Shown here piece after piece: positions 1 to 42,834 of a DNA stretch of 64,000 bases (position 1 is the stretch's first letter; every line of letters starts with the position of its first letter). The DNA comes from Candidatus Gottesmanbacteria bacterium (GTDB lineage Bacteria; Patescibacteriota; Microgenomatia; UBA10105; UBA927). A program made the position numbers and the translations under genes. The notes beneath the pieces are model-generated. The model was not told where the DNA came from, made no database searches, and worked only from the letters and a program-made list of their open reading frames with translations. The stretch spans positions 859,548-923,547 of the forward strand of contig OY969569.1 of assembly GCA_963701185.1 (NCBI GenBank). The letters run 5' to 3'.

Positions 1-183
1 TATACTTCCGTACACAAAAAGTATAACGCTCTCGTTAACCGGTTTTACGTACAATCTTGACCGGAAAATTCTTACCAAGGGGTCATCTCTTGGCGTGAGC
101 AATGAACTTGTCGGTAAACAGGGGGTCATTCAGTTGTTTTCCGGAAAAGCCTGGGTGATCGAAAGTAATGACTGATTTGGGGT

Positions 184-189
184 ATAATA
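184..189 (+). promoter_or_regulatory. -10 box TATAAT 9 nt upstream of tRNA-Ser(GCT)
   Basis: GGGGTATAAT read directly; same arrangement recurs at the other tRNA genes. Confidence 0.5.
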
Positions 190-197
190 TGCACTAC

Positions 198-285
198 GGA
201 GAGTGGGCAGAACGGTAATGCACGAGTTCGCTAAACTCGCGGGATGAATAGTCTCGAGTGGGTTCGACTCCCACACTCTCCGCCA
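198..285 (+). tRNA. tRNA-Ser (anticodon GCT), long variable arm, CCA encoded
   Basis: Acceptor GGAGAGT/ACTCTCC; anticodon loop TCGCTAA; long variable arm; T-arm GTGGGTTCGACTCCCAC; discriminator G + CCA. Confidence 0.8.
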
Positions 286-286
286 G

Positions 287-373
287 GGAGAGGTCGCATA
301 GTGGTTTAGTGCGTTAGTCTTGAAAACTAATGTCGGCGCAAGCTGACCGTGGGTTCGAATCCCACCCTCTCCG
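287..373 (+). tRNA. tRNA-Ser (anticodon TGA)
   Basis: Acceptor GGAGAGG/CCTCTCC; anticodon loop CTTGAAA; long variable arm; T-arm GTGGGTTCGAATCCCAC; starts 1 nt after the previous tRNA. Confidence 0.8.
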
Positions 374-552
374 CATAAGGTCTTCGGTTGCTCCAAGACC
401 CATCTACTATACTCGATTAGCCCTATGTGGCTTGCTAAAAAGGCGATGGAAAACACAAGTATCCCAAACATAGCCTGTAATGCACAAAATCGCTGGAAAG
501 CCCCTCAAGGTATTTGCGCCCGGTTCTAAGCTTTCATTGATATAATGTTGTT

Positions 553-1551
553 ATGAAGAAAACATTAAAAGTCTGGATAGAAAAACAAGGATTTAGTATC
601 GATAAAGATATTGCTTTTACTATAGATAAAAGCACGAATGGAACCATTAAAAATACTGATAATCCCTACAAAACCATAGAATTTCTCCTTGAAAAAGAGA
701 TTTCGGTAAAAGAGTACCAAAGTGGATTTATAGGCAAATACAAAAATGAGCTCGCCTCATACTTGTTACGTTTCTTACAGTCATATGGGATTAAAAACGG
801 ATTGACCATCGTAATTGACCCCTCAGAGGTTCAGTCAAATGAGACCGAGTTATATGAAATATTTCGTTCTTACTGTACTGATAATCACTTAGATCCTTTA
901 TTAAAACCCACAGGCGGAAGTGTTGAATTTGTTTACGAAGAACTTCACTCAACCGATGTTGTCGATTTAGCTAAGCAGAATTTTACTTCTGACCCATATT
1001 TAATTTCAGCGATTGATTGGTATAACACTGGATTAATACAAACTCATTCTACAAATAAATTTCTTCATTTTTTTATTCCACTAGAAATTCTTGCAGGAAG
1101 ATTTATTACTGAAGTTAAAACGAATTGGAAAAAAGAAAATCCAGAGGCCTATAAGGGTATTAAATATTTCCTCGAAAAAGCGTTAGAAAGCAAAGATGAA
1201 GACATGCTCCAACGCTTGATGAACGATCTTTCAAGATTTTCTTTCCCGAAGCAACTAGAGCGATACTTTAATTTTTTGTTTTCAGAACAAGAGCTCGTCA
1301 ACTTTTGGGAAGATGATAGCGATATTACATTTAATGGTAAGCACCAATGGAAAACATATCGACTAATGAGTAAGCAAACTACAACTAAAGACAAAGTGCA
1401 TGTACTATCTATTATGAAAAAAATGTATCTAATCAGAAATAATATAGTTCATAAAGGATTGCAAAATGTTTCTTTCGAGGAAATTGTAGTTTTGGAAAAT
1501 ATTCTAAGGCGAGTTATCAAAAAACAATCTGAAAAACTAGCTAAGCATTAG
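553..1551 (+). CDS. Hypothetical protein with C-terminal HEPN-like Rx4H motif (possible Abi-type RNase)
   Basis: 332 aa; C-terminal LIRNNIVHKG matches Rx4-6H; AT-rich island cargo; TATAAT at 541-546 only 7 nt before the ATG, so leaderless. Confidence 0.35.
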   Translation: MKKTLKVWIEKQGFSIDKDIAFTIDKSTNGTIKNTDNPYKTIEFLLEKEISVKEYQSGFIGKYKNELASYLLRFLQSYGIKNGLTIVIDPSEVQSNETELYEIFRSYCTDNHLDPLLKPTGGSVEFVYEELHSTDVVDLAKQNFTSDPYLISAIDWYNTGLIQTHSTNKFLHFFIPLEILAGRFITEVKTNWKKENPEAYKGIKYFLEKALESKDEDMLQRLMNDLSRFSFPKQLERYFNFLFSEQELVNFWEDDSDITFNGKHQWKTYRLMSKQTTTKDKVHVLSIMKKMYLIRNNIVHKGLQNVSFEEIVVLENILRRVIKKQSEKLAKH

Positions 1552-2859
1552 CTCCCTGTTCATTAGTTTAAATTTTGAAGTAACACCTTTGAGGATTTTG
1601 AGTCTTTCCTCTGGAGTTCCAAATTGTAGAACGTGGAGTAAATATTCTTTGAGCATTTCAGTGTGAGTTTCACTATATTCTCTCGGACTCTGGTCACCTG
1701 TATTGTGAGGAGTAATTTCAACTTGTGGTATATAGTCACTAATCACGCTTGCTTTAAAATGTTGCAGTCGTTTTACTTCCACTTCAAATTCTTGCATTAG
1801 GTACGAAGTGTTAAGTTTGATTCTTGGTAGATAACCAATTAATTGTTTGATCAATTCTTGCTCTGTAATATAGGGCTCGGGGCAGTCATATTTTTTGATG
1901 CGATTGCAATGATAATAGATATGCGAGTTCACGATATTAGCTTTTGTTCTTCGATACTTTAGTTCAGCGGTGACGCTTCCTCCGCATAATCCGCAAGTAC
2001 AAATTTTCTTGAACGGAAACAGCTGTTTATTCCACTGTCTCGGAGCCACTTGCAGTTGAATCTGTACTTTTTCAAAGAGTGCTTTTGTAATCAATGGTTC
2101 GTAAGTTCCCTTGTACCATATGCCTCCGTATTGGAATTCACCGTAATAAAAAGTATTTTGTAATGCAACGTAGATTTTACTCAGTGGCATTTTACACCCA
2201 CTCTTTGTGGTGAATCCTATGTCATCTAACCACTTTTTAACCATGCGTCCTGAAAATCCTTGATCAGCAACTTTATGAAAAATTTGTTTAATAACAGGTG
2301 CTCGTTCAGGATCAAATTCCACTGTTGAAATACGATTTACTTTTAAGACGTTTCTATACCCAATTGGTGCAACTCCTGGTCTAATTCCAATCTGGCATTT
2401 GTTTCGTAACCCACGTTTAACATTGACACCTCGATTATCATTTTCTAATTTTGCTTGAGAGCAGAGAATCATAAGCAGGAATTTTTCATTTGGATTATCT
2501 GTAAAGGACTGCGAATATGTTTTGATGTGGGTCAGTTTTCCTTGATCCATTAAATCCACGATTCTTCCCAAGTCTCCCGCATTTCGAGATAACCGATCAG
2601 GTGCCCATGTCAAAATACTGTTGTATTTTCCTTCAATTACTCCATGGAGAAGATTATTAAACTCTGGTCGTTGTCCTGACTCTTTGGCTGAATGGCTTTC
2701 TGTAATTGTTTCTGTAATATCGAGCTTTTCTCGCTTTGCAAGAATTTGCATTTCTTTAAGCTGACCATCAATTGACATTGCCTGTCGCTCATCCGATTCG
2801 CTTGATTTGCGGGCATATAAGCAATACTTTAGCCTGGTGGTATCTTTCATCAGGTACAA
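1537..2859 (-). CDS. Large serine recombinase (resolvase/invertase catalytic domain, recombinase domain, zinc ribbon)
   Basis: N-terminal YARKSSESDE...DGQ catalytic-serine region, SRN motif; central recombinase domain; C-terminal CTCGLCGG...C zinc ribbon; 440 aa. Confidence 0.8.
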   Translation of the reverse strand: MYLMKDTTRLKYCLYARKSSESDERQAMSIDGQLKEMQILAKREKLDITETITESHSAKESGQRPEFNNLLHGVIEGKYNSILTWAPDRLSRNAGDLGRIVDLMDQGKLTHIKTYSQSFTDNPNEKFLLMILCSQAKLENDNRGVNVKRGLRNKCQIGIRPGVAPIGYRNVLKVNRISTVEFDPERAPVIKQIFHKVADQGFSGRMVKKWLDDIGFTTKSGCKMPLSKIYVALQNTFYYGEFQYGGIWYKGTYEPLITKALFEKVQIQLQVAPRQWNKQLFPFKKICTCGLCGGSVTAELKYRRTKANIVNSHIYYHCNRIKKYDCPEPYITEQELIKQLIGYLPRIKLNTSYLMQEFEVEVKRLQHFKASVISDYIPQVEITPHNTGDQSPREYSETHTEMLKEYLLHVLQFGTPEERLKILKGVTSKFKLMNRELMLS

Positions 2860-2952
2860 TGTACCGCAAAGGTTTGGGAAGTCCAGTCCTGAAAAATTCT
2901 TTCTTTAAGGCTGAAAATTAGCTATAATAGAAGAGTAAATTGGATTTTCCAT

Positions 2953-3750
2953 ATGTTTAAAAACCGAAAGAACTTACCCATCGCGCCTTTGTTATTAGTA
3001 GCAATTTTTATTATTTTTGGCGTTTATTACTACGCAAAAAATGGCCAGGTCTGGTTTGAGGGAAATGATAACAAAAGTTTACCTATTACGACTGATGGAT
3101 CACAAAAAACGATAGGTTGTGTCCGAACAACAAGACTTGAAAATGCACCACAGTACGATAGGGCATTAAGTCTTATCCGACAAAGGGTAGATGAAAATAA
3201 TAAATGGTGGAATAAGTATGGAGAAAAAGAAGATGGGAGATTTAAATATTTCCCTCCAGAACTTGTTAACTGTATAAAGATATCCGAAGAAGATATAAAA
3301 GACGCACCAGAGGTAGAGGGCTATTTTATATTCAATAGTGAAGACATAAAAACGGATTATTACCCCATTACCGTAAGTTCTGATTATCGTTATGCAGACG
3401 ATATCGTAACTGCAATTCTTTTATCGCATGAGATGACACATGTTCAACAATATATAAAGTCTGTCAATGAAAAGGATAGTCTATCTTGTATTGATAAAGA
3501 AATTGAGGCCTTCAGAGCTCAATTAGATTTTTATGTTCTTTTAAACAATGAAGAAAATAGTTCTGTCTATCACAGAATTCAAAGCGATAAGAATTTGCAT
3601 CCTGAGCTCCAGATGCTAGATGCAATGATGACAATAAATCGTGATTCAAATTGTAAGTTTGATAAGAGTTGCACGGATGCAAATTTACTGAGTAAACTTC
3701 GAGCAATGCTTATTGATGATAGTTATTATAAAAAGCAATGCAAATTGTAG
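2953..3750 (+). CDS. Membrane-anchored protein with HExxH zinc-metallopeptidase motif
   Basis: N-terminal TM helix (LPIAPLLLVAIFIIFGVYYY); LLSHEMTHVQ HExxH motif with downstream Glu; first gene of an overlapping three-gene operon. Confidence 0.4.
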   Translation: MFKNRKNLPIAPLLLVAIFIIFGVYYYAKNGQVWFEGNDNKSLPITTDGSQKTIGCVRTTRLENAPQYDRALSLIRQRVDENNKWWNKYGEKEDGRFKYFPPELVNCIKISEEDIKDAPEVEGYFIFNSEDIKTDYYPITVSSDYRYADDIVTAILLSHEMTHVQQYIKSVNEKDSLSCIDKEIEAFRAQLDFYVLLNNEENSSVYHRIQSDKNLHPELQMLDAMMTINRDSNCKFDKSCTDANLLSKLRAMLIDDSYYKKQCKL

Positions 3751-4256
3751 GTAAATACGTAAACTTAATAGCAGTCGACCATGCCTCTCAATGGAATGAA
3801 ACATTATCTAAAAAAAGCGAGCTCCGAGGTTATTTAAACAAAATAATTGAAAGTTGCTCCGTTGATTTAATTGGAGAGGAGTTTTCAATTGAAGCGTTGC
3901 AAGGATTGCCTAATAGCACCGAAGCAACTATTCCCCAAAAAGTCGCAAAGGAATTCCACATAAGACATGAATTCTGTGATCCTGATGAGAAAACACGAGA
4001 AAGAATTGGTTATCCTTCACAAAAACAATTACGAGTTAAGTTTGGTTTAAAATCAGCAATTGAAGGAACCAAAGAGCATAGTAGAAGGAAAGAGTATGAG
4101 AAATGTTTCTGGCCTATACGAGAGAAGTATTGGTTAGCTCAAATTCACAACATTATAGCTAAAAACATTATATTTATCTGCGGTTCTAGCCATTTAGAAA
4201 GCTTCAAATCTATTTTGACTGAAAATAGATATAGGGTTACAACAACAAAAATATGA
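3738..4256 (+). CDS. Hypothetical protein, operon partner 2
   Basis: 172 aa, no recognisable motif; overlaps the upstream gene by 13 nt and the downstream gene by ATGA. Confidence 0.3.
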   Translation: MQIVGKYVNLIAVDHASQWNETLSKKSELRGYLNKIIESCSVDLIGEEFSIEALQGLPNSTEATIPQKVAKEFHIRHEFCDPDEKTRERIGYPSQKQLRVKFGLKSAIEGTKEHSRRKEYEKCFWPIREKYWLAQIHNIIAKNIIFICGSSHLESFKSILTENRYRVTTTKI

Positions 4257-4711
4257 ACGATCCTATCCAAATAATTTTTTCTGCTTTGACTCTACTTGGT
4301 ATTGGAGGTATTGTTGGTGCTTATGTGTCTTCCTTGCTTGATAAAAAGAAAGAGTTGGAATTTAAACTACTAGAGCAAAAGGAAAGAAGATATAAATCTT
4401 GCCTTTTATATATGGATGCCTTTTTTGAACCTAAAAATATAAAATACCTCTCAAGCAGACAACCAGATATTGATAATTCGCATGATGTAATCGAATATTT
4501 AAAAATGGAATATCACGAGATGATGCTCTATGCCTCGAAAGCAGTGATACTTTCAGTTAAAGTGTTTATAGAAAAACCAACAAGAGAGAATTTTTTAAGG
4601 ACGATTCTTTGTATGCGACAAGATTTATGGGTCAACAAGAGAGATTTAAACCTAAGAGAGATCAAAATTGAGTTTCAAGCCCCAAAAGGCGGAAGAACCT
4701 CTAAAAAATGA
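4253..4711 (+). CDS. Hypothetical membrane-anchored protein, operon partner 3
   Basis: N-terminal TM (IIFSALTLLGIGGIVGAYVSSLL), then charged coiled region; ATGA overlap with the upstream gene. Confidence 0.3.
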   Translation: MNDPIQIIFSALTLLGIGGIVGAYVSSLLDKKKELEFKLLEQKERRYKSCLLYMDAFFEPKNIKYLSSRQPDIDNSHDVIEYLKMEYHEMMLYASKAVILSVKVFIEKPTRENFLRTILCMRQDLWVNKRDLNLREIKIEFQAPKGGRTSKK

Positions 4712-4745
4712 GACACCCTTTTTATAGTGTCTCATTTGTCTCATT
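4710..4745 (+). terminator. Putative intrinsic terminator
   Basis: GAGACAC-10 nt loop-GTGTCTC hairpin overlapping the stop codon, followed by ATTTGTCTCATTT. Confidence 0.4.
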
Positions 4746-4837
4746 TAGCCTCACCAATGAGACACTTAAATTGCAGTTATAAGGATGAAATATCCCGAAT
4801 TTGGTACAATACTAGTTATGGAGCTTATGGGATGCTT

Positions 4838-4864
4838 GGGGTTCCAGACCTACCCTCTCCGCCA
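4838..4864 (+). repeat. Degenerate copy of tRNA-Ser 3' end (T-arm plus acceptor), att-like
   Basis: GGGGTTCCAGACCTACCCTCTCCGCCA versus tRNA-Ser(TGA) 3' end GTGGGTTCGAATCCCACCCTCTCCGCA, about 21/27 identical; last 12 nt identical to Ser(CGA)/Ser(GGA) ends. Confidence 0.5.
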
Positions 4865-5014
4865 TTACATACAAAATAATAAACGGGGTATTCCGGCAAT
4901 CCGGAGCGGCAGAAAAGCACGTTCTAACTGAAAAATGCATTTAGCCTGACAGGGGGCGGGATTTGAACCTAACGGTGTAATCAGTTTACGAATTTAAATG
5001 TTGCACGGGTAATT

Positions 5015-5524
5015 ATGAACAACTTTCGTTTTAGCCCAATAAAAAATAAAGCGCAAATGATGCAAGCGCTGGAATATATTCATCTTTCTTGCCATCAACT
5101 GTGCAAACAATCGATGGGGAAATATTTACCGGTTGCTGGGAATATAGGTATATTTTGTCACCAAGATGATGAATTTGATTTCCTTAAACAGCTGCAGTCA
5201 GATTTAACGGATTTAACCAAGTACGTTTATGGAAAATATTATTTGCTCCATACTCCCATAGTTATTCCACAAAAAGACGGTATTCCGGAGGCGATTTATA
5301 AATATCTTTATATTCGGAAACCAGATACAAATAAACCACAAGTTGGAGATTTGGATTTCTATATGGCATCGGAGAAATACGCAGCCTTAAAACAGTCATT
5401 GCAGGAAGGAAAAGTAATAAACGGTGCTAGAATACTCCCAAATCGTCCCGATCTGGATTTAATTGAACTATCCAATCCGAATATAGATGCGGTTGGCTTT
5501 ATAGGAGATAAGTTTTGGAAGTAA
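5015..5524 (+). CDS. Hypothetical protein
   Basis: 169 aa ORF, AT-rich, no recognisable motifs. Confidence 0.3.
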   Translation: MNNFRFSPIKNKAQMMQALEYIHLSCHQLCKQSMGKYLPVAGNIGIFCHQDDEFDFLKQLQSDLTDLTKYVYGKYYLLHTPIVIPQKDGIPEAIYKYLYIRKPDTNKPQVGDLDFYMASEKYAALKQSLQEGKVINGARILPNRPDLDLIELSNPNIDAVGFIGDKFWK

Positions 5525-5602
5525 AATAGTTTTGAGCTTCCTCTACCGCTCGGAGTCAGTAGGTTTAGCTACTTATAGGTGTTTATTGGAGAGTTAATCG
5601 AC

Positions 5603-5674
5603 TATAATTTAATTGTTCCGTGGGCAGGCTCGCAGTTCTAAAATAGGTTATAACTTTGTAAATGGTTCTCCGCC
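5603..5674 (+). repeat. Direct repeat copy 1, about 72 bp, ending in TCTCCGCC
   Basis: Shares a 20-bp block (ATAATT.AATTGTTCCGT) and an exact 35-mer AAAATAGGTTATAACTTTGTAAATGGTTCTCCGCC with 6550-6621. Confidence 0.7.
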
Positions 5675-5796
5675 TTCGCCTCGCTGAAGTTCCGCCAAAG
5701 GCGGAACGAAAGCGGGCTTCGCCCGTTTCAGCTCGGCTTCGGCGAGACGCTGTCCGCCATTGTTTCGCCATAGCTTTAGCGACGGCGAATAAATCT
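5675..5796 (+). ncRNA. GC-rich, highly structured ~120-nt element of unknown function
   Basis: Local GC above 60% in an AT-rich context; nested perfect hairpins (GTTCCGCC-AAA-GGCGGAAC; GCGGGC-TTC-GCCCG; CTCG-GCTTCGG-CGAG; CGCC..GGCG). Confidence 0.3.
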
Positions 5797-6039
5797 ATGT
5801 TTTATGTCTACATTTTAAAATGTTCAGATAACCGTACGTATATAGGCTGCACCGATGACTTAAAAGATCGAGTTGACCGTCATCAAAAAGGTAATGTTGC
5901 CGCCACTAAAGATCGATTACCGATAAAACTCATTTCCTACTTTGCTTTCTCCAACAAATATACGGCGTTTAATTTCGAAAAATATCTGAAATCAGGATCT
6001 GGGAGAGCGTTTTTGAGGAAACATGATATTATTGGTTAA
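5797..6039 (+). CDS. Small GIY-YIG nuclease family protein (UPF0213/YhbQ-like)
   Basis: FYVYILKCSDNRTYIGCTDDLKDRVDRHQ matches the GIY-x10-YIG core; about 80 aa, single-domain family. Confidence 0.65.
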   Translation: MFYVYILKCSDNRTYIGCTDDLKDRVDRHQKGNVAATKDRLPIKLISYFAFSNKYTAFNFEKYLKSGSGRAFLRKHDIIG

Positions 6040-6044
6040 TTAAT

Positions 6045-6554
6045 ATGTTTTCTTCAGATCAAATCCGACAGTATTTGCAAATTACCATCGATGAAGCAGA
6101 GATAGCCTTAGAAGAAGGTAATTATCCAATTGGTTCTGCAATAGTCGATGTAGAAGGGAAAATATTGTCGACAGATAGAAACAAAAGTTTTACTAATGAG
6201 GATGTTTCCGCACATGCGGAAATCTTAGGAATTAGAAAGCTTGGCAATAAAGTAAATAAGGATACGCCTGGAGAATATTTTTTATTTTCCTCCCTTGAGC
6301 CATGTTTTGGATGCAGTTTCTTTATAGCTAGAACCAATATTAAACATATAACTTCTGCTTTAAAAGATCCCCATAAAGGCGGAATGAGTGATTTGCATAA
6401 ACTGGATCAGTTTAATTATTTTTTCAAACACATCGAAATTATTAATGAGCCTTTCGAGGATTTAAAGGAACAGTCTCGACGATTGATGGTAGAGTATTTT
6501 TTGAAATTAGGACGAAAAGATGCAGCAAAATTTTACGGGTATACAGGAGAATAA
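6045..6554 (+). CDS. CMP/dCMP-type (CDA fold) zinc deaminase, TadA/guanine-deaminase-like
   Basis: HAEILGI ... EPCFGCSF zinc-binding H(A)E / PCxxC motifs. Confidence 0.6.
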   Translation: MFSSDQIRQYLQITIDEAEIALEEGNYPIGSAIVDVEGKILSTDRNKSFTNEDVSAHAEILGIRKLGNKVNKDTPGEYFLFSSLEPCFGCSFFIARTNIKHITSALKDPHKGGMSDLHKLDQFNYFFKHIEIINEPFEDLKEQSRRLMVEYFLKLGRKDAAKFYGYTGE

Positions 6555-6621
6555 TTCAATTGTTCCGTAGGTAGCATAGTGGTTTTAAAATAGGTTATAA
6601 CTTTGTAAATGGTTCTCCGCC
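6550..6621 (+). repeat. Direct repeat copy 2, about 72 bp, ending in TCTCCGCC; right edge of the AT-rich island
   Basis: Exact 35-mer plus 20-bp block shared with 5603-5674; overlaps the stop codon of the deaminase gene. Confidence 0.7.
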
Positions 6622-6644
6622 CGAGAATTTGATACGATCACTAC

Positions 6645-6965
6645 ATGAACACATCCTCACATCTTCATGGTTCGCTTGACGAACACATACATTATCAGGA
6701 AGGATCCGTCGTCAGTAAAGAGATTTTTAAAAATCAATCAGGCACAGTGACGCTCTTTGCGTTTGATCAGGGGCAGGGTTTAAGTGAACATAAGACGCCT
6801 TACGAAGCATTGGTTTACATTGTTGACGGGGAAGCCCAAATAACACTATCCGGAAAAGTGAATGAAGTAAAAGCAGGAGAAATCATTCAGATGCCGGTCG
6901 GCCAACCCCATGCCCTTCAAGCAAAGAAACGGTTCAAGATGTTGTTAATTATGATGAAAGCGTAA
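6645..6965 (+). CDS. Cupin domain protein
   Basis: Cupin-like pattern GxxxEH...P...Y...G read from the translation. Confidence 0.5.
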   Translation: MNTSSHLHGSLDEHIHYQEGSVVSKEIFKNQSGTVTLFAFDQGQGLSEHKTPYEALVYIVDGEAQITLSGKVNEVKAGEIIQMPVGQPHALQAKKRFKMLLIMMKA

Positions 6966-6966
6966 T

Positions 6967-7503
6967 TTGATATATACTGAATTCATGGTCGATACTGCCG
7001 ACGACACACAGGAAAAAGTCAAACAAGAGGTACTTCTGTCCTGGGCTTCTCCATCCCGTTTGTTCAAACGACGGGACAAAGAGTATTTCACCAATATCGG
7101 GGCGATTGTGTTTCTTCTTATCATTATTTTGGTATTTGCCCGGGAGTTTCTCCTTATTGCGGCCGTCGTATCCATCGTATTTCTGATTTACGTCCTTTCC
7201 ACCGTGCCGCCGGAGGAAGTGAGCCACCGGATTACGAATCTTGGGATCGAAAGTGCCGGGCACTATTACCGGTGGGAAGAGCTCTCCGAATTTTGGTATG
7301 AGGAGCAGTGGGGTCAGGCACTTTTGGTTCTGCGGCCGATCCTGGGAACCCGGATTATTATCCTTTTGGGAGCCCAGGATAAGGCACTCGTCCGCAAGCT
7401 TATCGCAGAATATATCCCGTACCGGGAAAATCCGGAGAAAAGCTGGGTAGATAACGCATCCTCCTGGTTGTCGAAGAAAATTCCCCTGGAGAAGCCTTCA
7501 TAG
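6967..7503 (+). CDS. Hypothetical membrane protein
   Basis: Two TM helices (IGAIVFLLIIILVF / LLIAAVVSIVFLIYVL). Confidence 0.4.
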   Translation: MIYTEFMVDTADDTQEKVKQEVLLSWASPSRLFKRRDKEYFTNIGAIVFLLIIILVFAREFLLIAAVVSIVFLIYVLSTVPPEEVSHRITNLGIESAGHYYRWEELSEFWYEEQWGQALLVLRPILGTRIIILLGAQDKALVRKLIAEYIPYRENPEKSWVDNASSWLSKKIPLEKPS

Positions 7504-7514
7504 CCGTTTTGCGG

Positions 7515-7520
7515 TATAAT
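7515..7520 (+). promoter_or_regulatory. -10 box TATAAT 10 nt upstream of the tRNA-Arg/tRNA-Ser pair
   Basis: GCGGTATAAT read directly. Confidence 0.45.
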
Positions 7521-7530
7521 AAGCCCTATT

Positions 7531-7605
7531 GTTCCTGTAGTTCAATGGATAGAATACGTCCCTGCGAAGGATGTGATTGCAGTTCGACTCTGCACAGGAA
7601 CGCCA
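7531..7605 (+). tRNA. tRNA-Arg, anticodon read as GCG (atypical for bacteria)
   Basis: Acceptor GTTCCTG/CAGGAAC, discriminator G, CCA encoded; anticodon stem CGTCC/GGATG, loop CTGCGAA; T-arm TGCAGTTCGACTCTGCA. Confidence 0.7.
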
Positions 7606-7608
7606 TTT

Positions 7609-7697
7609 GGAGAGGTGCAGGGAATGGTTATCCGGACAGTCTCGAAAACTGTTACCCCGCAAGGGGTTTGTGGGTTCGACTCCCACCCTCTCCGCCC
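7609..7697 (+). tRNA. tRNA-Ser (anticodon CGA)
   Basis: Acceptor GGAGAGG/CCTCTCC; anticodon stem-loop ACAGT-CTCGAAA-ACTGT; long variable arm; T-arm GTGGGTTCGACTCCCAC. Confidence 0.75.
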
Positions 7698-8111
7698 ATG
7701 ACTATCACCATCTGCGGCAGTATGCAGTTTCATCATGAAATGACCCAAATCCAGCTTTCGCTGGAGGATCAGGGGCATACGGTGTTGGTACCCAAAGATC
7801 TGACGATTCTTGAACAGAACGAGTCATATATGGGGACGGACGAAGAACGGATTTCCTCTAAAATTGAACACGATTTTATCCGCGAGCATTTTAAAAAGAT
7901 TGAAAAATCCGACGCGATACTCATACTCAATTACGAAAAAAAGAACATTGTCGGATATGTGGGGGGAAATACGTTTTTGGAAATGGGGTACGCGTTCGGG
8001 CTGGGGAAGAAGATTTATCTTTTATATCCGGTTCCGGAGATGGATTACAAGGTTGAAATGCATTCCATGAAGCCGGTTGTGTTACACGGGGATCTTTCAA
8101 CGCTACAGTAA
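7698..8111 (+). CDS. Nucleoside 2-deoxyribosyltransferase-like (Rcl/DNPH1 fold) protein
   Basis: GGNTFLEMGYAFGLGKKIYL matches the family G..E.G.A.G.GK motif; true ATG at 7698, the ORF-track N-terminus overlaps the tRNAs. Confidence 0.5.
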   Translation: MTITICGSMQFHHEMTQIQLSLEDQGHTVLVPKDLTILEQNESYMGTDEERISSKIEHDFIREHFKKIEKSDAILILNYEKKNIVGYVGGNTFLEMGYAFGLGKKIYLLYPVPEMDYKVEMHSMKPVVLHGDLSTLQ

Positions 8112-10097
8112 CACGTCTTCCCCGTCTTTTTTATCCTGATGAATGAGCGTTCGAATTATTTTTCCCGCGCTGTCCAGAATCTCGAGCGTTCCGCCGTTTT
8201 GCCCCGTGAGCCGATCGTTGTACGTTTGTTCTGCGGCGCCCGTCCGGTCATCTGCCCGTATGTACCGTCCTGTTGCCGGAGTGAGTGTGATTCCCGGATA
8301 TGACAGGAGGGTCTCACGGACTTCGGCTGTTATAGGATGCGGCAAAATGCCGATTGCCGCCGGCCAGTCGGGCTGGCTGTTGACCATATACCGGTGGTAC
8401 AGGTTCACGGCGCTGTTCCCCGGAGGCCCCCCGAAAAGTTTTTCCAGGTATATAAGCATCTCCTGTTCGCGTGCAGGTTCAACTTTTTGAGGCGTTATCC
8501 ACACCATGTAGCTGGGGAAATCTGATGCAAGCACGGTCCCCTGACTGATAAGCGATCCGCGTCTTCCCGGTATCACGGTCGTTTTGAGGGAGTCGCCCCC
8601 GGTAAACCCCGCAATAAGGTACTGCGGCTGCCACGGAATGCGCCACCTGTTGTTTTCGTTGACAATAGGAAGACGGATTTTTTCCGTAAACCCACCCAGA
8701 TTTCTCGTGGTGTATGTTACCTCCAGTACTATGTATTGCGGACTGGCAAATTGTTTCCATGCGACCGGTTCGGCAGTAATGCTGATGGATTCAATATCTC
8801 CGTCCTTTATAATCCGCTGCATGTTCCGATGAAATGCATGTCTTGCCTCGGTTCTCTTTGTACTGTCGGTAAAGCGTTCATACATATCCTGGAAAAATCC
8901 GTGTTTCCAGTCGTAGAGAAACTGCCCGACGTCAGCTTCCGGCGTGGGAAATACGGCGTGCCAACCGGCATAGGCATTGAAAAACAGAAGGCTGCATGCG
9001 CAGGCGACAACCACCCATGTAGGTTTGAACGTCCGGATTGCAACAGCAGCCCCGATATACAAAAACGGAACAGTTAGGAGTAAATACCGCGTCCAGAAAG
9101 GAACAAACGTATAGAAGAGCATGATGAAAAAGACGGAGACCCAGATGGTGGCAACCCACATATTTTTCCGCGTCCTGTATGCCGTGTATGCGGAAAGAAT
9201 TGTGATAATCGGCCATGCTACGCTCCACTCCGGCACGGGTTGCCAAAGTTTGGTGAAGAGGTTTTGGGAGCGGTCAAAGAGTAGGGTCGTCCAGATACTT
9301 CCGATATTGGACTCCAATCGACTATTGGTGTAGAACATAAACATCCATTTTTGAACGCGCAGCCAATCAAGAAGCGTATGGCCCAACAAAAAATAGCGGG
9401 CATAGGAGAGCACATACATGCCTATTGCTGATACAAGAAAGATTAGTATATTGCGCGTTGAGCGTGTTTTTTTCCAGATATAATACCCGCCGACTGTCAG
9501 TAATATGACGGATAAAATCGGATACTTGATCGCAGAAAAAATACCCAGCGCAAGGCCTGCAGATGCGACACGCATGGGTCTGTATGGTTGGCCGACCGAA
9601 TAATGCAGCAGAATAAAGAACAGAAGGAGTGCAGAAAGATGCAGCGTGTCCAGCATAGTAGCCGTCCATTGTGACAGGAATATGAGATCAAAGGAGAACC
9701 AGGTGGCGGCAAGAAGCGCGTAGGTCGTATTCTTCAGTATGATTTTTGCCAAAACATAGAATAACAGTGCGGCCATAATCGATGTTGTTACCCCGTACCA
9801 ATATCCGTTTCCCGCAAGTTGTATGACGGCACCAATTGCGTATTTCCCCAACGGGGGAATCTCCGCGTTGTATTTTGTCGGATCAATGCCATAGACGAGT
9901 TGATACCCTTCATAGGCGTATAGCCCGTTATCACCGAGTGTTCTGTCGGAAAGAGGCAATTGCCATTGGGAATGTTCAAACCGGTCTTTCCAATACACAG
10001 CATCATAGGGGGACATAAGCTGCGCCCGGTTGGCCCAGAACAGTACGCCGGCAAGAAGAACGAGGAGTATAACGAGTACGACGTTCAATTTTTTCAC
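8103..10097 (-). CDS. Polytopic membrane glycosyltransferase, PMT/ArnT (GT39/GT83)-like, with C-terminal soluble domain
   Basis: At least 10 predicted TM helices in the N-terminal 400 aa, extracytoplasmic C-terminal domain; GTG start. Confidence 0.4.
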   Translation of the reverse strand: MKKLNVVLVILLVLLAGVLFWANRAQLMSPYDAVYWKDRFEHSQWQLPLSDRTLGDNGLYAYEGYQLVYGIDPTKYNAEIPPLGKYAIGAVIQLAGNGYWYGVTTSIMAALLFYVLAKIILKNTTYALLAATWFSFDLIFLSQWTATMLDTLHLSALLLFFILLHYSVGQPYRPMRVASAGLALGIFSAIKYPILSVILLTVGGYYIWKKTRSTRNILIFLVSAIGMYVLSYARYFLLGHTLLDWLRVQKWMFMFYTNSRLESNIGSIWTTLLFDRSQNLFTKLWQPVPEWSVAWPIITILSAYTAYRTRKNMWVATIWVSVFFIMLFYTFVPFWTRYLLLTVPFLYIGAAVAIRTFKPTWVVVACACSLLFFNAYAGWHAVFPTPEADVGQFLYDWKHGFFQDMYERFTDSTKRTEARHAFHRNMQRIIKDGDIESISITAEPVAWKQFASPQYIVLEVTYTTRNLGGFTEKIRLPIVNENNRWRIPWQPQYLIAGFTGGDSLKTTVIPGRRGSLISQGTVLASDFPSYMVWITPQKVEPAREQEMLIYLEKLFGGPPGNSAVNLYHRYMVNSQPDWPAAIGILPHPITAEVRETLLSYPGITLTPATGRYIRADDRTGAAEQTYNDRLTGQNGGTLEILDSAGKIIRTLIHQDKKDGEDVLL

Positions 10098-10105
10098 GTT
10101 AGGGG

Positions 10106-10111
10106 TATAAT
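10106..10111 (+). promoter_or_regulatory. -10 box TATAAT 9 nt upstream of tRNA-Arg(CCG)
   Basis: AGGGGTATAAT read directly. Confidence 0.45.
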
Positions 10112-10120
10112 AGGCTCTAA

Positions 10121-10193
10121 GCTCTCGTAGTTCAATGGATAGAATACGCCCCTCCGAAGGGTGTGATTGCAGTTCGACTCTGCACGAGAGCGC
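10121..10193 (+). tRNA. tRNA-Arg (anticodon CCG)
   Basis: Acceptor GCTCTCG/CGAGAGC; anticodon stem-loop CGCCC-CTCCGAA-GGGTG; D- and T-arms nearly identical to the tRNA at 7531. Confidence 0.8.
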
Positions 10194-10194
10194 A

Positions 10195-11106
10195 TTACCT
10201 GCTTACCCAATCTTTTACTTCCTGCAGGAGTCCCGAGCCGCTGGTAATCACAATACCAACAAGAACAAGGGCGGTGCCGAAAACAAACGCCGGTGAGATA
10301 GCTTCCTTCAGTACTGCGACATTGACGAGAATGGAGAAAACCGGCCCGATATAATTCTGAAGCGATGCGGTCGTTGCCGATGAGTGCTTAATTGCCCATT
10401 GGTACAAAAGATATGTGGCGACGGTAACGATCACGCCCAAGTGAAGAACAAGCAAAATCGTTGAAGGTTGAAGAAGAGTCGGTATATACGAAGGTTTAAA
10501 CGTAAACAGACTGATGACGAAAAATACGGCGGTTGTCGTAAATAAAAACATGCTTGTGACGGCGACAGGAGAGTACCCTTTATCTGCAATGGCCCGGCGT
10601 GAGCTGATTGTATAAAAGGACCATGCTATTGTGGCACATACAAAAAAGATATTTCCCGTTATGTTCCCTGAAACTGACTCACCCCGTGAAAAGGTCGGAA
10701 GAAAGGCTATAAAAAGAATTCCTGCAAATCCCACAAGAATACCTGTGAGTTTTTGCCTATTCAACCGTTCACCGATAAGATAGTGAGCTAAAATCGCGGT
10801 GAGCATCGGCGCGCCGGCGTAGGTGAGTGTCGCGGCATTGGCAGTGGAGAGTGATAATCCAAGATAATAAAAAAGGATGTTTATGGTGGCAAGAAGAGAA
10901 AAAGGGATGAGGTCGCGCATAAGATGCTTGCGTGTAACATTCGTTTTTAAAAAAATGGGCAAAATGACGAGTGAGGCTACAAAAAAACGAAGGAATGCGG
11001 CAAAATACGGGTCAAACTCCCGTACGATAATTTTGGAGAGCCCTGCGGTGGACCAGAGGAGCGAAGCCAGGATAATCGCAATAAGCGCTTTCGTGCGGGA
11101 AGACAT
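10195..11106 (-). CDS. EamA/DMT-family transporter
   Basis: 10-TM architecture with two EamA-like halves; starts 1 nt after the tRNA. Confidence 0.55.
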   Translation of the reverse strand: MSSRTKALIAIILASLLWSTAGLSKIIVREFDPYFAAFLRFFVASLVILPIFLKTNVTRKHLMRDLIPFSLLATINILFYYLGLSLSTANAATLTYAGAPMLTAILAHYLIGERLNRQKLTGILVGFAGILFIAFLPTFSRGESVSGNITGNIFFVCATIAWSFYTISSRRAIADKGYSPVAVTSMFLFTTTAVFFVISLFTFKPSYIPTLLQPSTILLVLHLGVIVTVATYLLYQWAIKHSSATTASLQNYIGPVFSILVNVAVLKEAISPAFVFGTALVLVGIVITSGSGLLQEVKDWVSR

Positions 11107-11119
11107 GCCCCTATTATAG

Positions 11120-11125
11120 TATAAT
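11120..11125 (+). promoter_or_regulatory. -10 box TATAAT 9 nt upstream of tRNA-Ser(GGA)
   Basis: TATAGTATAAT read directly. Confidence 0.45.
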
Positions 11126-11134
11126 TAGCCTATT

Positions 11135-11223
11135 GGAGAGGTGTGATAATTGGTAGTCGCCTCGCTTGGAAAGCGAGTGTCCTGGAAACGGGATTAGGGG
11201 TTCGAATCCCCTCCTCTCCGCCC
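11135..11223 (+). tRNA. tRNA-Ser (anticodon GGA)
   Basis: Acceptor GGAGAGG/CCTCTCC; anticodon stem-loop CTCGC-TTGGAAA-GCGAG; long variable arm; T-arm AGGGGTTCGAATCCCCT. Confidence 0.75.
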
Positions 11224-11227
11224 GAAT

Positions 11228-11545
11228 ATGGATATACATGATTTAACGGAAAAAATTGAAAAGATATCGGAGAATTACTCGAAAAAATATCAATTCGAGC
11301 GTGACCCCGATTGGTTTGTGCTGAAGCTTCAGGAAGAGCTCGGTGAGCTTATTCAGGCGTACCTTATGGTGCAAGGCAAAGCGCGGCAAAAAGGTAAAAG
11401 CAAAGAACAAATCCGGGATGATTTCGAAAATGAGGTAGCAGATGTATTGGCGCATACCCTTCTTCTGGCCAAACATTTTCACGTTGACCTGGATAAGGTT
11501 TTTGAAGGGAAATGGCTGAAGTGGGCTCAAAAGGAAGACGCATGA
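11228..11545 (+). CDS. MazG-like nucleotide pyrophosphohydrolase
   Basis: EELGELIQA and ENEVADVLAHTLLLA helices typical of the MazG NTP-PPase domain. Confidence 0.6.
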   Translation: MDIHDLTEKIEKISENYSKKYQFERDPDWFVLKLQEELGELIQAYLMVQGKARQKGKSKEQIRDDFENEVADVLAHTLLLAKHFHVDLDKVFEGKWLKWAQKEDA

Positions 11546-12012
11546 TTACCTGCACGTTTGAAAAGGGAAATGCCGCGCGTCTGCGGCATGTGGTGGTGCA
11601 TGCCATTATTGAGATGGATGGGAAGCTGCTTTTGGAGAAACGGACCGGCGACCTTTTAGAGAGCGGTAAATGGAGTTTACCCTCAGGATTTCTGGACCGC
11701 GATGAGACGGCAGCCGAAGGCATTGTGCGGGAGGTGAAAGAAGAAACAGGATGGGATTGCAAAGTTATCTCTTTGTTCCGCATCAACACCAACCCCAACC
11801 GGCCGCATGAAGACCGTCAGAATGTTTCGATTGAATTTTTGGTGAAAGCAATTAAAAAAACCGGTGAAAAGGACGCCGAGTCATCCAAGGTTGAATGGAT
11901 TCCGATTGATAAGCTTATCCCGCTATCTGATTTCGCGTTTGATCACGGGGAAAGTATAGGATTGTACCTCACGTACAGGAAAACTCCGTTTCCACTCCCG
12001 ATTATGGTATAG
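11512..12012 (+). CDS. NUDIX hydrolase
   Basis: Nudix box GKWSLPSGFLDRDETAAEGIVREVKEETG; true start may be the internal Met at 11542. Confidence 0.7.
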   Translation: MAEVGSKGRRMITCTFEKGNAARLRHVVVHAIIEMDGKLLLEKRTGDLLESGKWSLPSGFLDRDETAAEGIVREVKEETGWDCKVISLFRINTNPNRPHEDRQNVSIEFLVKAIKKTGEKDAESSKVEWIPIDKLIPLSDFAFDHGESIGLYLTYRKTPFPLPIMV

Positions 12013-14927: not shown

Positions 14928-16080
14928 AATTTTTCTTTTCATTCTTTTTCTTGTTGCCGGTGCGTTAAGCGCCGTTGGGCTTATGTATGGTTTGGGCGCG
15001 TCTCCGGTAAGGTTTGATAATCCCATTCTTACCACATTTGACGTAAAAAAACCGGAGATTGTCGGATTCTTACCATACTGGCTCATCAGTAAAACGGATA
15101 AAGATTATTCAAAATACATTACGACGCTTACGTACTTCGGGCTGACACTCAATAGCGACGGCACGGTTAAAAAACTCACCAATCCTCAGGAGGAAGAACC
15201 GGGGTGGACCGCCCTCAAGGCGGATACGTACCAGAAATACAATGCAAAACAGTCGCTGCTTGTTGTAAGCGGCGATGACGGCGCCATCGGCGATATGATC
15301 GGCAATCCCGTTGCCAGCGCGAACAATTTAATCGCGGACGTTGCCCCGATTATGAAAGAAAAGGGATTTACCGATTTAAACCTCGACATCGAAACATTTA
15401 TGGACGCATCGGAAAGTGCCCGCACCAACTTTACGTTGTTTGTGCAGACGGTGACAGAGCAGATAAAAGACCAAAAATTGGGGACGGTCACGCTTGACCT
15501 CATTCCCATAGCTCTGGTAAAAAGCAAAATCTATGACGCAAAAGCCCTCGGTGCGATTGTCGATCGCGTGGTGCTTATGACGTATGACTACCATTATACC
15601 GGGTCGTTTACGTCCGGTGCCAACGCACCGATCGGGGGAGCGGAGGTCACGATAGAATATGATACCCAAACGGCAGTGAAAGAAGCGCTCAAGGTGATGC
15701 CGCCGCAAAAAATACTTTTAGGAATTCCGCTTTATGGCTATGAATGGGAAACCCTAGGTTCCGCTCCCGAGTCGGCAACGATTCCCGGCGGATCATCTAT
15801 TGCCAGCGTTCGACGGGTTGCAGATCTTTTATCAGCCTGTGCAACATGTTCAGCTCAAATTGATCAAGTCGCCAAAGAACCATACGTCATTTATCAGGAC
15901 AATGATTACTTTAACCAGATTTATTTTGAAAATGAGGACTCGATGAAGGAAAAAATAGCGATGGCTCAAACATATCATCTCGGCGGTGTTGCCCTGTGGG
16001 CATTGGGATATGAGGACAGTACGATGCTTACGCCCTTATCAACATACAAAAACACGTTGGATTTATCTAACCTGTATTAA
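14920..16080 (+). CDS. Glycoside hydrolase family 18-like secreted protein
   Basis: Signal peptide; DLNLDIE (variant of GH18 DxDxE) and YGYEW motifs; TTG start overlapping the rpoD stop. Confidence 0.5.
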
Positions 16081-16716: not shown

Positions 16717-16728
16717 ATTTTTTCCTTT

Positions 16729-16802
16729 ATCGTCTAATTTTGTCTAAGTTGATAACCATGTAATTTAGTCTTAAATAAGAGTGATCGTCTAATTTTGTCT
16801 AA
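16729..16802. repeat. Two exact 19-bp direct repeats ATCGTCTAATTTTGTCTAA (16729-16747, 16784-16802) plus extra GTCTAA motifs
   Basis: Read directly; in the 100-bp spacer upstream of the 16063-16716 gene. Confidence 0.7.
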
Positions 16803-16815
16803 ATTGTCTAATGTA

Positions 16816-40950: not shown

Positions 40951-40984
40951 AACAAAAATCCCGCGCAAGCGGGGTTTTTGGTGG
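40951..40984. terminator. Bidirectional intrinsic terminator (copy 1 of an identical 34-bp element)
   Basis: AACAAAAATCCCGCGCAAGCGGGGTTTTTGGTGG: CCCGC-GCAA-GCGGG hairpin with A-run and T-run; between convergent pilA and uppP. Confidence 0.7.
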
Positions 40985-42734: not shown

Positions 42735-42743
42735 CCCCTAATA

Positions 42744-42752
42744 TGGTATACT
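42744..42752 (+). promoter_or_regulatory. Extended -10 promoter TGGTATACT with ~80-nt leader for the RRM protein gene
   Basis: TGnTATACT; downstream SD AAGGAGAAAGGAG. Confidence 0.4.
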
Positions 42753-42834
42753 ATCCCTACCTTGGAAAGAAGTGTGGAAGGCGGTCTCTTTAGGCACGTA
42801 TCCTCTTTAAGTCCTAAGGAGAAAGGAGTCCCAT

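Follow-up and report, generated by a model that had tools for sequence, protein, structure and literature searches.

A variable, AT-rich region downstream of tandem tRNA-Ser genes

We analyzed a 64-kb stretch of Candidatus Gottesmanbacteria DNA (contig OY969569.1; hereafter the window), near the left end of which two tandem tRNA-Ser genes are followed by an AT-rich block carrying a large serine recombinase, a small stand-alone GIY-YIG nuclease-domain protein, and several sequences that resemble the 3' end of tRNA-Ser. The first gene of the pair, tRNA-Ser(GCT), lies at positions 198 to 285 of the plus strand (ARAGORN; 47.3 bits with the Rfam tRNA model). The second, tRNA-Ser(TGA), at positions 287 to 374 (+; ARAGORN; 62.6 bits), is intact, and its 3' end is the integration target on the attL side of the block. 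The PBP-like protein of the window matched Candidatus Gottesmanbacteria and other Microgenomates.

The conserved backbone of the locus runs in the order thiamin pyrophosphokinase, tRNA-Ser(GCT), tRNA-Ser(TGA), variable DNA, DUF178-like gene, tRNA-Arg(GCG), and tRNA-Ser(CGA). It is common to four of the loci and contigs fetched for comparison (designated by L and a number: L002, L013, L033, and L040) and partially present in L099. The slot for variable DNA spans 6.6 kb in the window, about 9 kb in L013, 1.1 kb in L002, where it holds one unrelated 358-amino-acid (aa) open reading frame (ORF), and about 0.8 kb in L040, where it holds a GIY-YIG cassette and a NUDIX gene. In L040 and L033, the GIY-YIG cassette abuts tRNA-Ser(TGA), with no DNA between them. 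Homology of the window to L040 and L002 ends at 374/375 and picks up at the DUF178-like gene (6967); homology to the cassette picks up at about 5666. The relatives L040, L033, and L002 carry far less DNA here, and the island is absent from their tRNA-Ser(TGA) site.

The right border of the variable region is formed by the gene for the DUF178-like membrane protein (6967 to 7503, +), which is 91% identical at the aa level to its counterparts in L002 and L040 and is found downstream of tRNA-Ser/GIY-YIG in about 20 fetched loci. The cupin gene to its left (6645 to 6965, +; Pfam Cupin_2) belongs to the variable region rather than to the backbone; no homologue occurs at the same position in L002, L013, L033, L040, or L099.

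The composition of the block is foreign, as profiling of GC content and codon usage confirmed. From 375 to 6621, the GC content is 0.35 to 0.38, as opposed to 0.47 for the host: 0.353 for positions 375 to 4864, 0.380 for 4865 to 5674, 0.354 for the GIY-YIG gene, and 0.343 for the deaminase gene that follows it, versus 0.467 for positions 7504 to 64000. The GC content of third codon positions (GC3) is 0.28 to 0.33 in the island genes versus 0.55 to 0.59 in the genes for DUF178, PBP, DnaG, and RpoD. A GC-rich patch of 122 nucleotides (nt), with a GC content of 0.58, stands inside the AT-rich block at 5675 to 5796. A reading of this stretch made from its sequence alone had placed the return to host composition exactly at 6621. 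This proved too early, as the cupin gene is intermediate (GC content, 0.427; GC3, 0.43) and the DNA is host-like from 6967 onward.

The sequence-only reading had also described one core at the 3' ends of the tRNA-Ser genes and of all repeats in the block. The motif in question, TCTCCGCC, is indeed repeated in the window (9 occurrences versus 1.7 expected), but the abutting tRNA-Ser(TGA) gene ends in TCTCCGCA and not in TCTCCGCC, and its ending is identical in a relative without the island. Therefore, the core common to tRNA-Ser(TGA) and its island junction is TCTCCGC. The idea of a composite region integrated at tRNA-Ser was essentially right: the data support a block of variable DNA with foreign composition at the tRNA-Ser(GCT)/tRNA-Ser(TGA) pair, made of three consecutive units with ends that resemble the 3' end of tRNA-Ser.

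A serine recombinase element at tRNA-Ser 3' ends

The first unit (375 to 4864) encodes a large serine recombinase (1537 to 2859, -), which is the unit's integrase by its Pfam and PHROG matches. The protein has the three-domain architecture of large serine recombinases (Resolvase, PF00239, 6.6e-19; Recombinase, PF07508, 7.3e-12; Zn_ribbon_recom, PF13408, 6.8e-7) and matches a PHROG integrase family (2e-57), whereas its scores against the named NCBIfam equivalogs (CcrB and XisF) are far below their cutoffs. We take the N-terminal segment ...YARKSSESDERQ to be the catalytic-serine region, judging by eye. At least 8000 homologues were found; the best 120 listed were 64 to 92% identical, and the few with a name came from Patescibacteria, also called the Candidate Phyla Radiation (CPR). 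This is the only recombinase among the scanned island ORFs, as had been noted from the sequence. No tyrosine recombinase was found in positions 375 to 6965, where no island ORF matched Phage_integrase in Pfam.

Between the tRNA gene and the recombinase lies a conserved left arm (the P' arm; 375 to 534, +), delimited by alignment to relatives, which contains the imperfect palindrome TCTTCGGTTGCTCCAAGA and is 77% identical to the sequence adjoining tRNA-Ser(TGA) in L099 and L101 and 87% identical to the arm of L104. The remaining ORFs appear to be cargo: one of 332 aa (553 to 1551, +) and three of 265, 172, and 152 aa (2953 to 4711, +). Neither these four nor the 169-aa ORF of the second unit matched Pfam, PHROGs, or NCBIfam, and homologues of the three ORFs at 2953 to 4711 were absent from the related loci.

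We examined the context of the recombinase gene in seven relatives. Six independent loci (the window, L099, L103, L105, L114, and L118) have a member of the family next to the 3' end of tRNA-Ser, always in the same orientation. The target is consistent among family members. The tRNA genes fall into five anticodon classes as called by ARAGORN: TGA in the window and L099, CGA in L103, GCT in L105, ACT in L114 to L117, and GGA in L118 to L120. The left-arm motif CTT(C)GGTTGCTCCAAGACCCA begins 8 to 10 nt past ..CCGC(C) in the window, L099, L103, L105, L114, and L104. No recognizable similarity to the arm was found in L118, and the arm is therefore present in five of the six tRNA-Ser loci.

The closest parallel is L099 to L102, where the recombinase is 92% identical to that of the window. 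There, tRNA-Ser(TGA) is followed by a 160-nt left arm (77% identical to window positions 375 to 534), the recombinase, other cargo including a major facilitator superfamily transporter, a sequence that we call F (77% identical to window positions 4702 to 4862), DUF178, tRNA-Arg, and tRNA-Ser(CGA). In L118 to L120, the recombinase lies downstream of a ParB-methylase gene and a weak terminase match; some family members are probably prophages. The IMG/VR contig L104, with a 94% identical recombinase, has a tRNA-like stub and no tRNA before the left arm, an arrangement that would fit either an attP that has not been integrated or an insertion into a decayed tRNA gene.

F forms the right end of the unit (4702 to 4864, +), as judged from its 77% identity to the far end of the L099 element. 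It consists of a terminator-like hairpin, the promoter-like sequence TTGGTACAAT, and a tRNA-Ser-like stub, GGAGC...GGGGTTCCAGACCTACCCTCTCCGCC. The stub, at 4839 to 4864, is what had been described as a 27-nt copy of the tRNA-Ser T arm and acceptor. Such a copy is present: by hand alignment, 20 of its 26 positions match the 3' part of tRNA-Ser(TGA), including the exact 11-nt run ACCCTCTCCGC, and an alignment tool gave 81% identity to tRNA-Ser(GCT). The unit is accordingly bounded by an intact tRNA gene at one end and a tRNA 3' fragment in the same orientation at the other. This 26-nt imperfect repeat is the core-proximal part of the element's own arm, which resembles the tRNA target, and not a long duplication. 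F directly precedes the conserved DUF178 gene in L099, and it also occurs in L073. In L022 to L024, F is joined to a GIY-YIG cassette, which is the product expected from integration into a cassette-bearing tRNA-Ser gene.

Because the recombinase family adjoins tRNA-Ser genes in six loci, unit 1 is a genuine integrative element inserted in a site-specific manner, and the lost tyrosine integrase that had been suggested earlier as one option is not needed. In the alignments of att sites, the conserved P and P' arms flank the shared core CTCCGC. From the sequences, we infer that the recombinase, whose catalytic activity is predicted, itself recombined its attP with the tRNA-Ser 3' end, with the crossover probably inside CTCCGC. 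The attP would have the form F arm-CTCCGC-ATAAGGTCTTCGGTTGCTCC..., and integration would leave the intact tRNA and the P' arm on the left and the tRNA-like F arm joined to the former tRNA-flanking DNA on the right. The predicted junction of the attP circle is ...GGGGTTCCAGACCTACCCTCTCCGC-ATAAGGTCTTCGG..., and that of the restored site is ...CCCACCCTCTCCGCC-ATTACATACAAAAT....

A GIY-YIG cassette fused to tRNA-Ser genes

The third unit (5675 to 6621) comprises a GC-rich hairpin leader (5675 to 5796, +), recognized by folding and from homologous leaders, which starts right after ...TCTCCGCC; a stand-alone 80-aa GIY-YIG nuclease-domain protein (5797 to 6039, +; Pfam GIY-YIG, PF01541, 2.2e-11); a nucleoside/tRNA-adenosine-type deaminase as cargo (6045 to 6554, +; Pfam dCMP_cyt_deam_1, 3.5e-14); and the repeat R2 described below. 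The small protein also matches the PHROG 'homing endonuclease with GIY-YIG motif' (2e-4) and has a GIY-YIG catalytic domain in which the Y..YIG, Arg, and Glu motifs can be seen by eye (MFYVYIL..TYIGCT..DR..NFEKY). That domain spans residues 1 to 64 of the 76 scanned, and no separate DNA-binding domain was found. Its relatives are 79 to 99 aa long.

A scan of JGI metagenomes yielded at least 283 relatives of the GIY-YIG protein, and we fetched 80 loci, 71 to 93% identical. In 58 of the 80, a tRNA gene on the same strand ends 78 to 235 nt upstream of the GIY-YIG match. Fifty-six of these 58 tRNAs are tRNA-Ser, and every isoacceptor type is represented. The junction reads ..CCGCC-TT(C/T)G.. or, as a variant, ..CCGC-TTTCA.. 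in 57 of the 58, with L060 as the exception. Of the remaining 22 loci, the majority are either truncated by the end of the contig or have decayed tRNA-like stubs with the same junction. Among the closest relatives of the window, L040 and L033 show the fusion on a true tRNA-Ser(TGA) (...CCCTCTCCGCC-TTCGC...), and the cassette is absent 3' of tRNA-Ser(TGA) in L002 and L099; its presence at this fixed position in a conserved target gene is sporadic.

The leader of the window has a minimum free energy of -62 kcal/mol, with z-scores of -4.7 and -5.4 in two runs, and the median folding z-score over 45 distinct leaders is -2.8. Homologous leaders occur 3' of tRNA-Ser genes in 56 loci. They are built of modules in which a 7-nt arm, GAA, an inner hairpin, GAA, and the complementary arm follow one another. 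Twenty distinct arm pairs stay paired through two-sided changes (GCC/GGC, GCT/AGC, GAC/GTC, and GTC/GAC), and swapping of arms between modules lowers the pairing from 29% to 10%. The modules were seen only between tRNA-Ser (or the R repeat) and the GIY-YIG gene (the window and the leaders of L019 to L098); none was found in the control loci, and there was no Rfam match. In several minimal leaders, the segment before the start codon (GCGAAGGAGAG) appears, by eye, to be complementary to the tRNA 3' end and trailer (CTCTCC..TTCGC).

Another Gottesmanbacteria genome, L013, carries the GIY-YIG and deaminase genes at the same locus (83% and 80% aa identity, respectively; 77% nt identity), where the pair is preceded by an R-like sequence and a Fic gene. 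A deaminase also follows the GIY-YIG gene, more distantly, in L034 and L035. The deaminase has 115 homologues, most of them 41 to 82% identical, whose names point to several candidate phyla of the Microgenomates group; its score with the NCBIfam TadA model (47.8 bits) is below the 150-bit cutoff.

Since L013 holds the same pair at the same locus and the cassette is fused to tRNA-Ser on many CPR contigs, the GIY-YIG and deaminase genes are not a private insertion of this genome. By its sequence, the cassette is a widespread, apparently undescribed unit linked to tRNA-Ser. We found no description of GIY-YIG genes fused to tRNA-Ser in the literature searched, whose coverage was incomplete and which is weak evidence of novelty.

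A side observation concerns decoding. CPR tRNA-Ser genes called with the anticodon ACT by ARAGORN (loop TTACTAA) occur in L021, L036, L045, L049, L053, L064, L114, and L116. A tRNA-Ser with A34 would normally need deamination. Deaminase genes recur beside the GIY-YIG cassette, and a tie to the ACT-anticodon tRNA-Ser is possible.

A family of repeats associated with GIY-YIG loci

Between the recombinase element and the GIY-YIG cassette lies the second unit (4865 to 5674, +), delimited from the ORF list and a repeat search, which has no recombinase and consists of the 169-aa ORF (5015 to 5524) and repeat R1 (5603 to 5674). The ORF belongs to a CPR-wide hypothetical family with 359 homologues at an E value of 0.001 or less, the best 120 listed being 51 to 75% identical; in three other contexts, it stands in arrays of small genes, with no adjacent R and not near tRNA-Ser. 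A second repeat, R2 (6550 to 6621, +), scores highest against the R profile (4e-20); it overlaps the stop codon of the deaminase gene and terminates in ...GGTTCTCCGCC. The direct repeats of 72 bp that had been reported here do exist. We delimit them at 5604 to 5674 and 6551 to 6621, where they are 71 nt long and 87% identical, with the last 36 nt identical; no such match arose in 100 shuffled sequences.

What these repeats represent required revision. They had been linked to duplication of an att core, but they did not simply arise in place by such a duplication and are members of a conserved family, R, whose core is up to 97% identical between contigs. We built a profile from six copies and searched the GIY-YIG loci (376 kb), control CPR loci (218 kb), and the window. 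About 20 distinct copies were found in the GIY-YIG loci, all on the strand of the GIY-YIG gene, and none in the control loci or elsewhere in the window. The conserved core reads AAAATAGGTT(A/C)TAAC..TGTAAAT(G/A)GT(T/C)CTCCGCC, and long copies have, in addition, TATAATTCAATTG(C/T)TC and some 20 nt of variable sequence. Copies stand directly after the GIY-YIG stop codon (L031/L032 and L055) or, as is usual, after one or two cargo genes. In L034/L035, the GIY-YIG gene, deaminase gene, and R precede two additional R copies spaced about 950 nt apart; the two copies of the window are 947 nt apart. The 35-nt core is 97% identical between the window and L034/L035, versus 77% for the GIY-YIG genes, and it must therefore be under constraint or have spread recently. 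In five places (R1 of the window, L013, L019, L030, and L109), R is followed by a GC-rich leader or by remnants of one.

R is neither a folded tRNA-like RNA nor an attC-like hairpin. Its folding z-scores range from +0.3 to +1.7, it has no Rfam or ARAGORN match, and the acceptor-like 3' ends of its copies lack matching 5' strands. Likewise, the F stub, R1, and R2 gave no tRNA match with Rfam cmscan at an E value of 1 or less over positions 1 to 12000, and none with ARAGORN. We also compared the last bases of R with the acceptor strand of the tRNA on the left in search of a target-site duplication; only CCGC(C) is general, with TCTCCGC in some loci, and no clear sign of a duplication emerged. 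An IMG/VR search with the 3' part of R (TTGTAAATNGTTCTCCGCC) returned three hits unrelated to R beyond the pattern, which, as we read their reverse strand, code for GGEPFT and tell nothing about R.

Logan contigs from ERR10755943 were considered as a possible empty site and rejected. L012 and L001 match the window exactly at 5645 to 6610 and 6614 to 7690, respectively; an alternative junction with the start of L001 at TCTCCGCC was dropped, since L012 ends at 6610, within R2-specific sequence. The gap at 6611 to 6613, inside R2, suggests a small polymorphism in the ERR10755943 population. Other R copies read ATAGTT where the window has ATGGTT.

Two further inserts were seen at the same kind of site. 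In L070, at about 4330 to 4480, an insert of about 130 nt follows tRNA-Ser(GCT) and lies between exact 17-nt repeats of the tRNA end (AATCCCACCTCCTCCGC); in L054, at about 820 to 900, an element of about 75 nt with terminal inverted repeats lies directly 3' of an R copy. The ..CCGCC end appears to be a general insertion hotspot.

The tRNA transcription units of the window are each preceded by a promoter-like motif, TTxGxGGTATAATAxGCxCTA (176 to 196, 7508 to 7528, and 10099 to 10119), which ends 1 to 2 nt before the tRNA 5' end. This layout of promoter and tRNA is imitated by F (TTGGTACAATACTA) and by the long R copies (TATAATTCAATTG).

Probable order of insertion

Our preferred interpretation, which we regard as likely, is that the 3' end of tRNA-Ser(TGA) is an insertion hotspot where three units are stacked, the recombinase element being the newest. 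The unit boundaries lie at 374/375, 4864/4865, and 5674/5675, and the last unit ends at 6621. The order of the events and the way in which R-ended units move are what we infer. The starting point would have been a state like that of L040, with tRNA-Ser(TGA) fused to the cassette, so that the GIY-YIG cassette (leader, 80-aa nuclease, deaminase, and R2) would form the oldest layer. Unit 2 (0.8 kb, with the 169-aa ORF and R1) would then have been inserted between the tRNA gene and the cassette, and the 4.5-kb recombinase element would have arrived last at the tRNA 3' end, each insertion shifting the older DNA to the right. The three copies of the tRNA 3' end would be the distal ends of units, F of the recombinase element and R of GIY-YIG-type units. 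The junction sequences fit this history: CCCACCC-TCTCCGC-ATAAGG at attL, AAATGGT-TCTCCGC-CTTCGCC at R1, and CCCACCC-TCTCCGC-CTTCGC at the unoccupied site of L040.

Three options may account for the movement of R-ended units: a homing-like process of the GIY-YIG nuclease, with R as the right homology arm; action of a recombinase in trans; or an origin of R as a decayed tRNA-Ser stub that moves along ahead of cassettes. R as the right terminus of a unit is favored by the unrelated DNA that most R copies precede and by the recurrence of the layout GIY-YIG, cargo, R. The stub is favored by the retention of R1 with the cassette on its right in L013 and by the likeness of R and F to a tRNA promoter with tRNA fragments.

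Several observations weigh against the stacking history. Units 2 and 3 have no recombinase, so that their insertion route is a proposal, and the left end of unit 2 (ATTACATAC...) is unlike both the P' arm of the recombinase element and the GC-rich leader. This genome was not found in a circular or empty-site form, and the junctions were reconstructed across species, the closest relatives of the locus being different species. No R was detected downstream of the GIY-YIG gene in L040, L033, or L013. The link of R with GIY-YIG loci has a sampling bias, as the loci were fetched through GIY-YIG, and a weak R core occurs in L109 with no GIY-YIG gene within 5 kb. Between the window and L013, R1 stays with the block on its right and not with the differing DNA on its left, a pattern that R as a stub preceding the cassette explains no less well than R as the end of the upstream unit. 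Finally, the divergence of the GIY-YIG/deaminase pair between the window and L013 is comparable to that of host genes; low GC content notwithstanding, the pair may be old and have been inherited vertically.

A more far-reaching proposal, which we put forward only tentatively, is that the tRNA-Ser-linked GIY-YIG cassette represents an undescribed class of mobile elements in the CPR. The bare 80-aa nuclease would break tRNA-Ser genes at or near their 3' ends, and repair would copy the element in, the left-hand homology being supplied by the tRNA gene. R, which is conserved, is carried by the element, and mimics the 3' end of tRNA-Ser, would serve as a portable right arm, so that any tRNA-Ser gene could be entered whatever lies downstream. 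Repeated rounds would build integron-like arrays of single-gene units, each ending in R. The hairpin leader would couple expression of the nuclease to the tRNA transcript or, alternatively, would be the structured substrate of the nuclease.

Alternative explanations of the repeats

The best surviving alternative, although we hold it to be unlikely, is that R, and perhaps F, are decayed and internally deleted copies of tRNA-Ser left behind by GIY-YIG homing through double-strand-break repair, which would persist by keeping a promoter and a tRNA-like 3' end ahead of the downstream genes. The anatomy of the copies is consistent with such an origin. Long R copies start with TATAAT about 10 nt before a segment like the tRNA-Ser 5' end; GCATAGTGGTTT in R2 is identical to positions 296 to 307 of tRNA-Ser(TGA), and GTGGGCAG in R1 is as in tRNA-Ser(GCT). 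F has TTGGTACAAT, GGAGC..., a T-arm-like hairpin, and CTCTCCGCC, in a layout like that of the window's true tRNA promoters. Stubs ending in ..CCGCC-TTCG precede the cassette in L019, L041, L050, L061, L064, and L077. The sequence immediately 3' of R is a GC-rich leader in the window (R1), L013, L019, and L030 and contains remnants of one in L109, and R1 is kept together with the right-hand cassette in L013. However, about 15 of the 20 R copies precede unrelated AT-rich DNA or host DUF178 and no cassette; the 35-nt core is too conserved for a pseudogene (97% versus 77% for the neighboring genes); F is the far end of the recombinase element in L099; and R has no tRNA match at an E value of 1 or less, with folding z-scores of +0.3 to +1.7.

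Less probable still is that R is a cis-regulatory or transcript-boundary element of accessory genes, with an incidental tRNA-like end, whose copies arose by local duplication or gene conversion. R does stand at gene boundaries: it overlaps the deaminase stop codon, lies 24 nt before the cupin start codon, and meets the ATG of the downstream ORF in L034. Long copies contain the TATAAT hexamer, and R1 and R2, identical over 36 nt, differ in the central 20 nt, which suggests gene conversion rather than one clean duplication. Nevertheless, the most conserved part (AAAATAGGTTMTAAC..TGTAAATGGTYCTCCGCC) has no good pair of -35 and -10 elements, although no promoter or terminator scan was made; there is no terminator hairpin, and the folding z-scores are positive. 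Confinement to GIY-YIG loci, with no copy in 218 kb of other CPR DNA, would be odd for a general expression signal.

The version of the sequence-only reading, in which serial islands of tyrosine integrases duplicated a tRNA-Ser att core and then lost their integrases, with the serine recombinase as a bystander, has in its favor that a tRNA gene with displaced 3' fragments in direct orientation is the typical signature of such islands and that, according to the Islander paper (PMC4383910), tRNA genes are not among the known targets of serine-family integrases, but it is very improbable, as positions 375 to 6965 contain no tyrosine recombinase, the serine recombinase itself sits at the tRNA-Ser 3' end in six loci (with the left arm in five and F as the right end in one), and the rightmost unit is a family-wide cassette found without an integrase in dozens of loci.

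Other features of the window

A group I intron interrupts a tRNA gene at 18378 to 18630 (+), with an Rfam Intron_gpI match at 18396 to 18582 (54.8 bits; gathering score, 50). The exons, TCCCCTGTAGCTCAACGGTAGAGCGGCTTCCTGTT ... AAGAAGAAGGTTGGAGGTTCGAATCCTCCCGGGGGAGCCA, read as tRNA-Asn(GTT), the 3' part of which ARAGORN miscalls as a 95-nt tRNA-Thr(GGT). An intron-free tRNA-Asn(GTT) lies downstream of DnaG-RpoD in L109 and L112. Just upstream of the intron-containing tRNA gene, a second low-GC stretch (16001 to 18255; GC content, 0.38) holds, on the minus strand, an ORF of 479 aa whose product has Schlafen/AlbA_2 and HATPase_c_4 domains. A perfect 34-nt direct repeat, the terminator-like AACAAAAATCCCGCGCAAGCGGGGTTTTTGGTGG, occurs at 40951 to 40984 and 43123 to 43156 and flanks about 2.2 kb. 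The GC content of positions 42001 to 44000 is 0.40, and the repeat-flanked stretch may be another small insertion.

Significance and relation to known systems

The recombinase belongs to an abundant and highly conserved family of patescibacterial serine integrases found consistently at tRNA-Ser 3' ends. From its sequence context, this family looks like an exception to the statement of the Islander paper on serine-family integrases (PMC4383910); in the literature searched, which was incompletely covered, we found no description of serine integrases targeting tRNA-Ser in the CPR. If confirmed, the finding adds tRNA-specific serine integrases with a compact, predictable target, useful for mapping CPR genomic islands and possibly as tools. 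The module fused base for base to tRNA-Ser ends, a covarying GC-rich hairpin leader with a tiny GIY-YIG protein, is very widespread and could represent either a novel type of selfish element or a novel means of driving gene expression from a tRNA promoter. The R repeat and the arrays of single-gene units that end in it suggest a mechanism of gene capture in very small bacterial genomes, for which routes of gene gain are poorly understood.

The locus shares several traits with the tRNA islands mapped by Islander and TIGER: an intact tRNA-Ser gene at one end, direct tRNA-3'-like fragments ending three consecutive units, foreign composition, variable cargo, relatives without the inserts, and the presumably newest unit nearest the tRNA. 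It differs in that the sole integrase is a large serine recombinase and not a tyrosine integrase, that the crossover probably falls at the very 3' end (CTCCGC) and leaves no part of the tRNA to restore, and that two of the three units have no integrase.

Unit 1 resembles the elements of large serine integrases (phiC31, Bxb1, A118, TP901-1, and CcrAB) in the three domains of the protein (Resolvase, Recombinase, and zinc ribbon), in the position of the gene near one end of the element, and in a short common core without a long duplication; the weak terminase-like and ParB-methylase genes near some relatives are suggestive of prophages. In contrast to these systems, the target is the 3' end of several tRNA-Ser isoacceptors and not a protein-coding gene, and the F arm is a conserved module of 150 nt, with a promoter-like hexamer and a miniature tRNA-like stub, whereas a typical attP is about 50 bp.

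Among nucleases, the nearest parallel is SegB of phage T4 and other free-standing GIY-YIG homing genes in tRNA clusters (PMC2330249). In both cases, a GIY-YIG gene stands beside tRNA genes and is sporadic among relatives, and the spread over many paralogous tRNA-Ser genes is as expected of a selfish nuclease gene. The protein described here differs in being a bare 80-aa catalytic domain without a DNA-binding domain, a nuclease by prediction; its gene always has a structured GC-rich leader in front, which starts at the exact tRNA 3' end, and its units often end in R.

Integron cassettes with attC sites are likewise short, single-gene units in one orientation, each with a conserved element of about 40 to 70 nt. 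The spacing of R copies, about 950 nt in the three of L034/L035 and 947 nt in the two of the window, and the fixed starting platform also recall integron arrays. Unlike integrons, the locus has no IntI tyrosine recombinase, R forms no stable hairpin of the attC kind (z-scores above 0), and the platform is a tRNA-Ser gene with a GIY-YIG gene.

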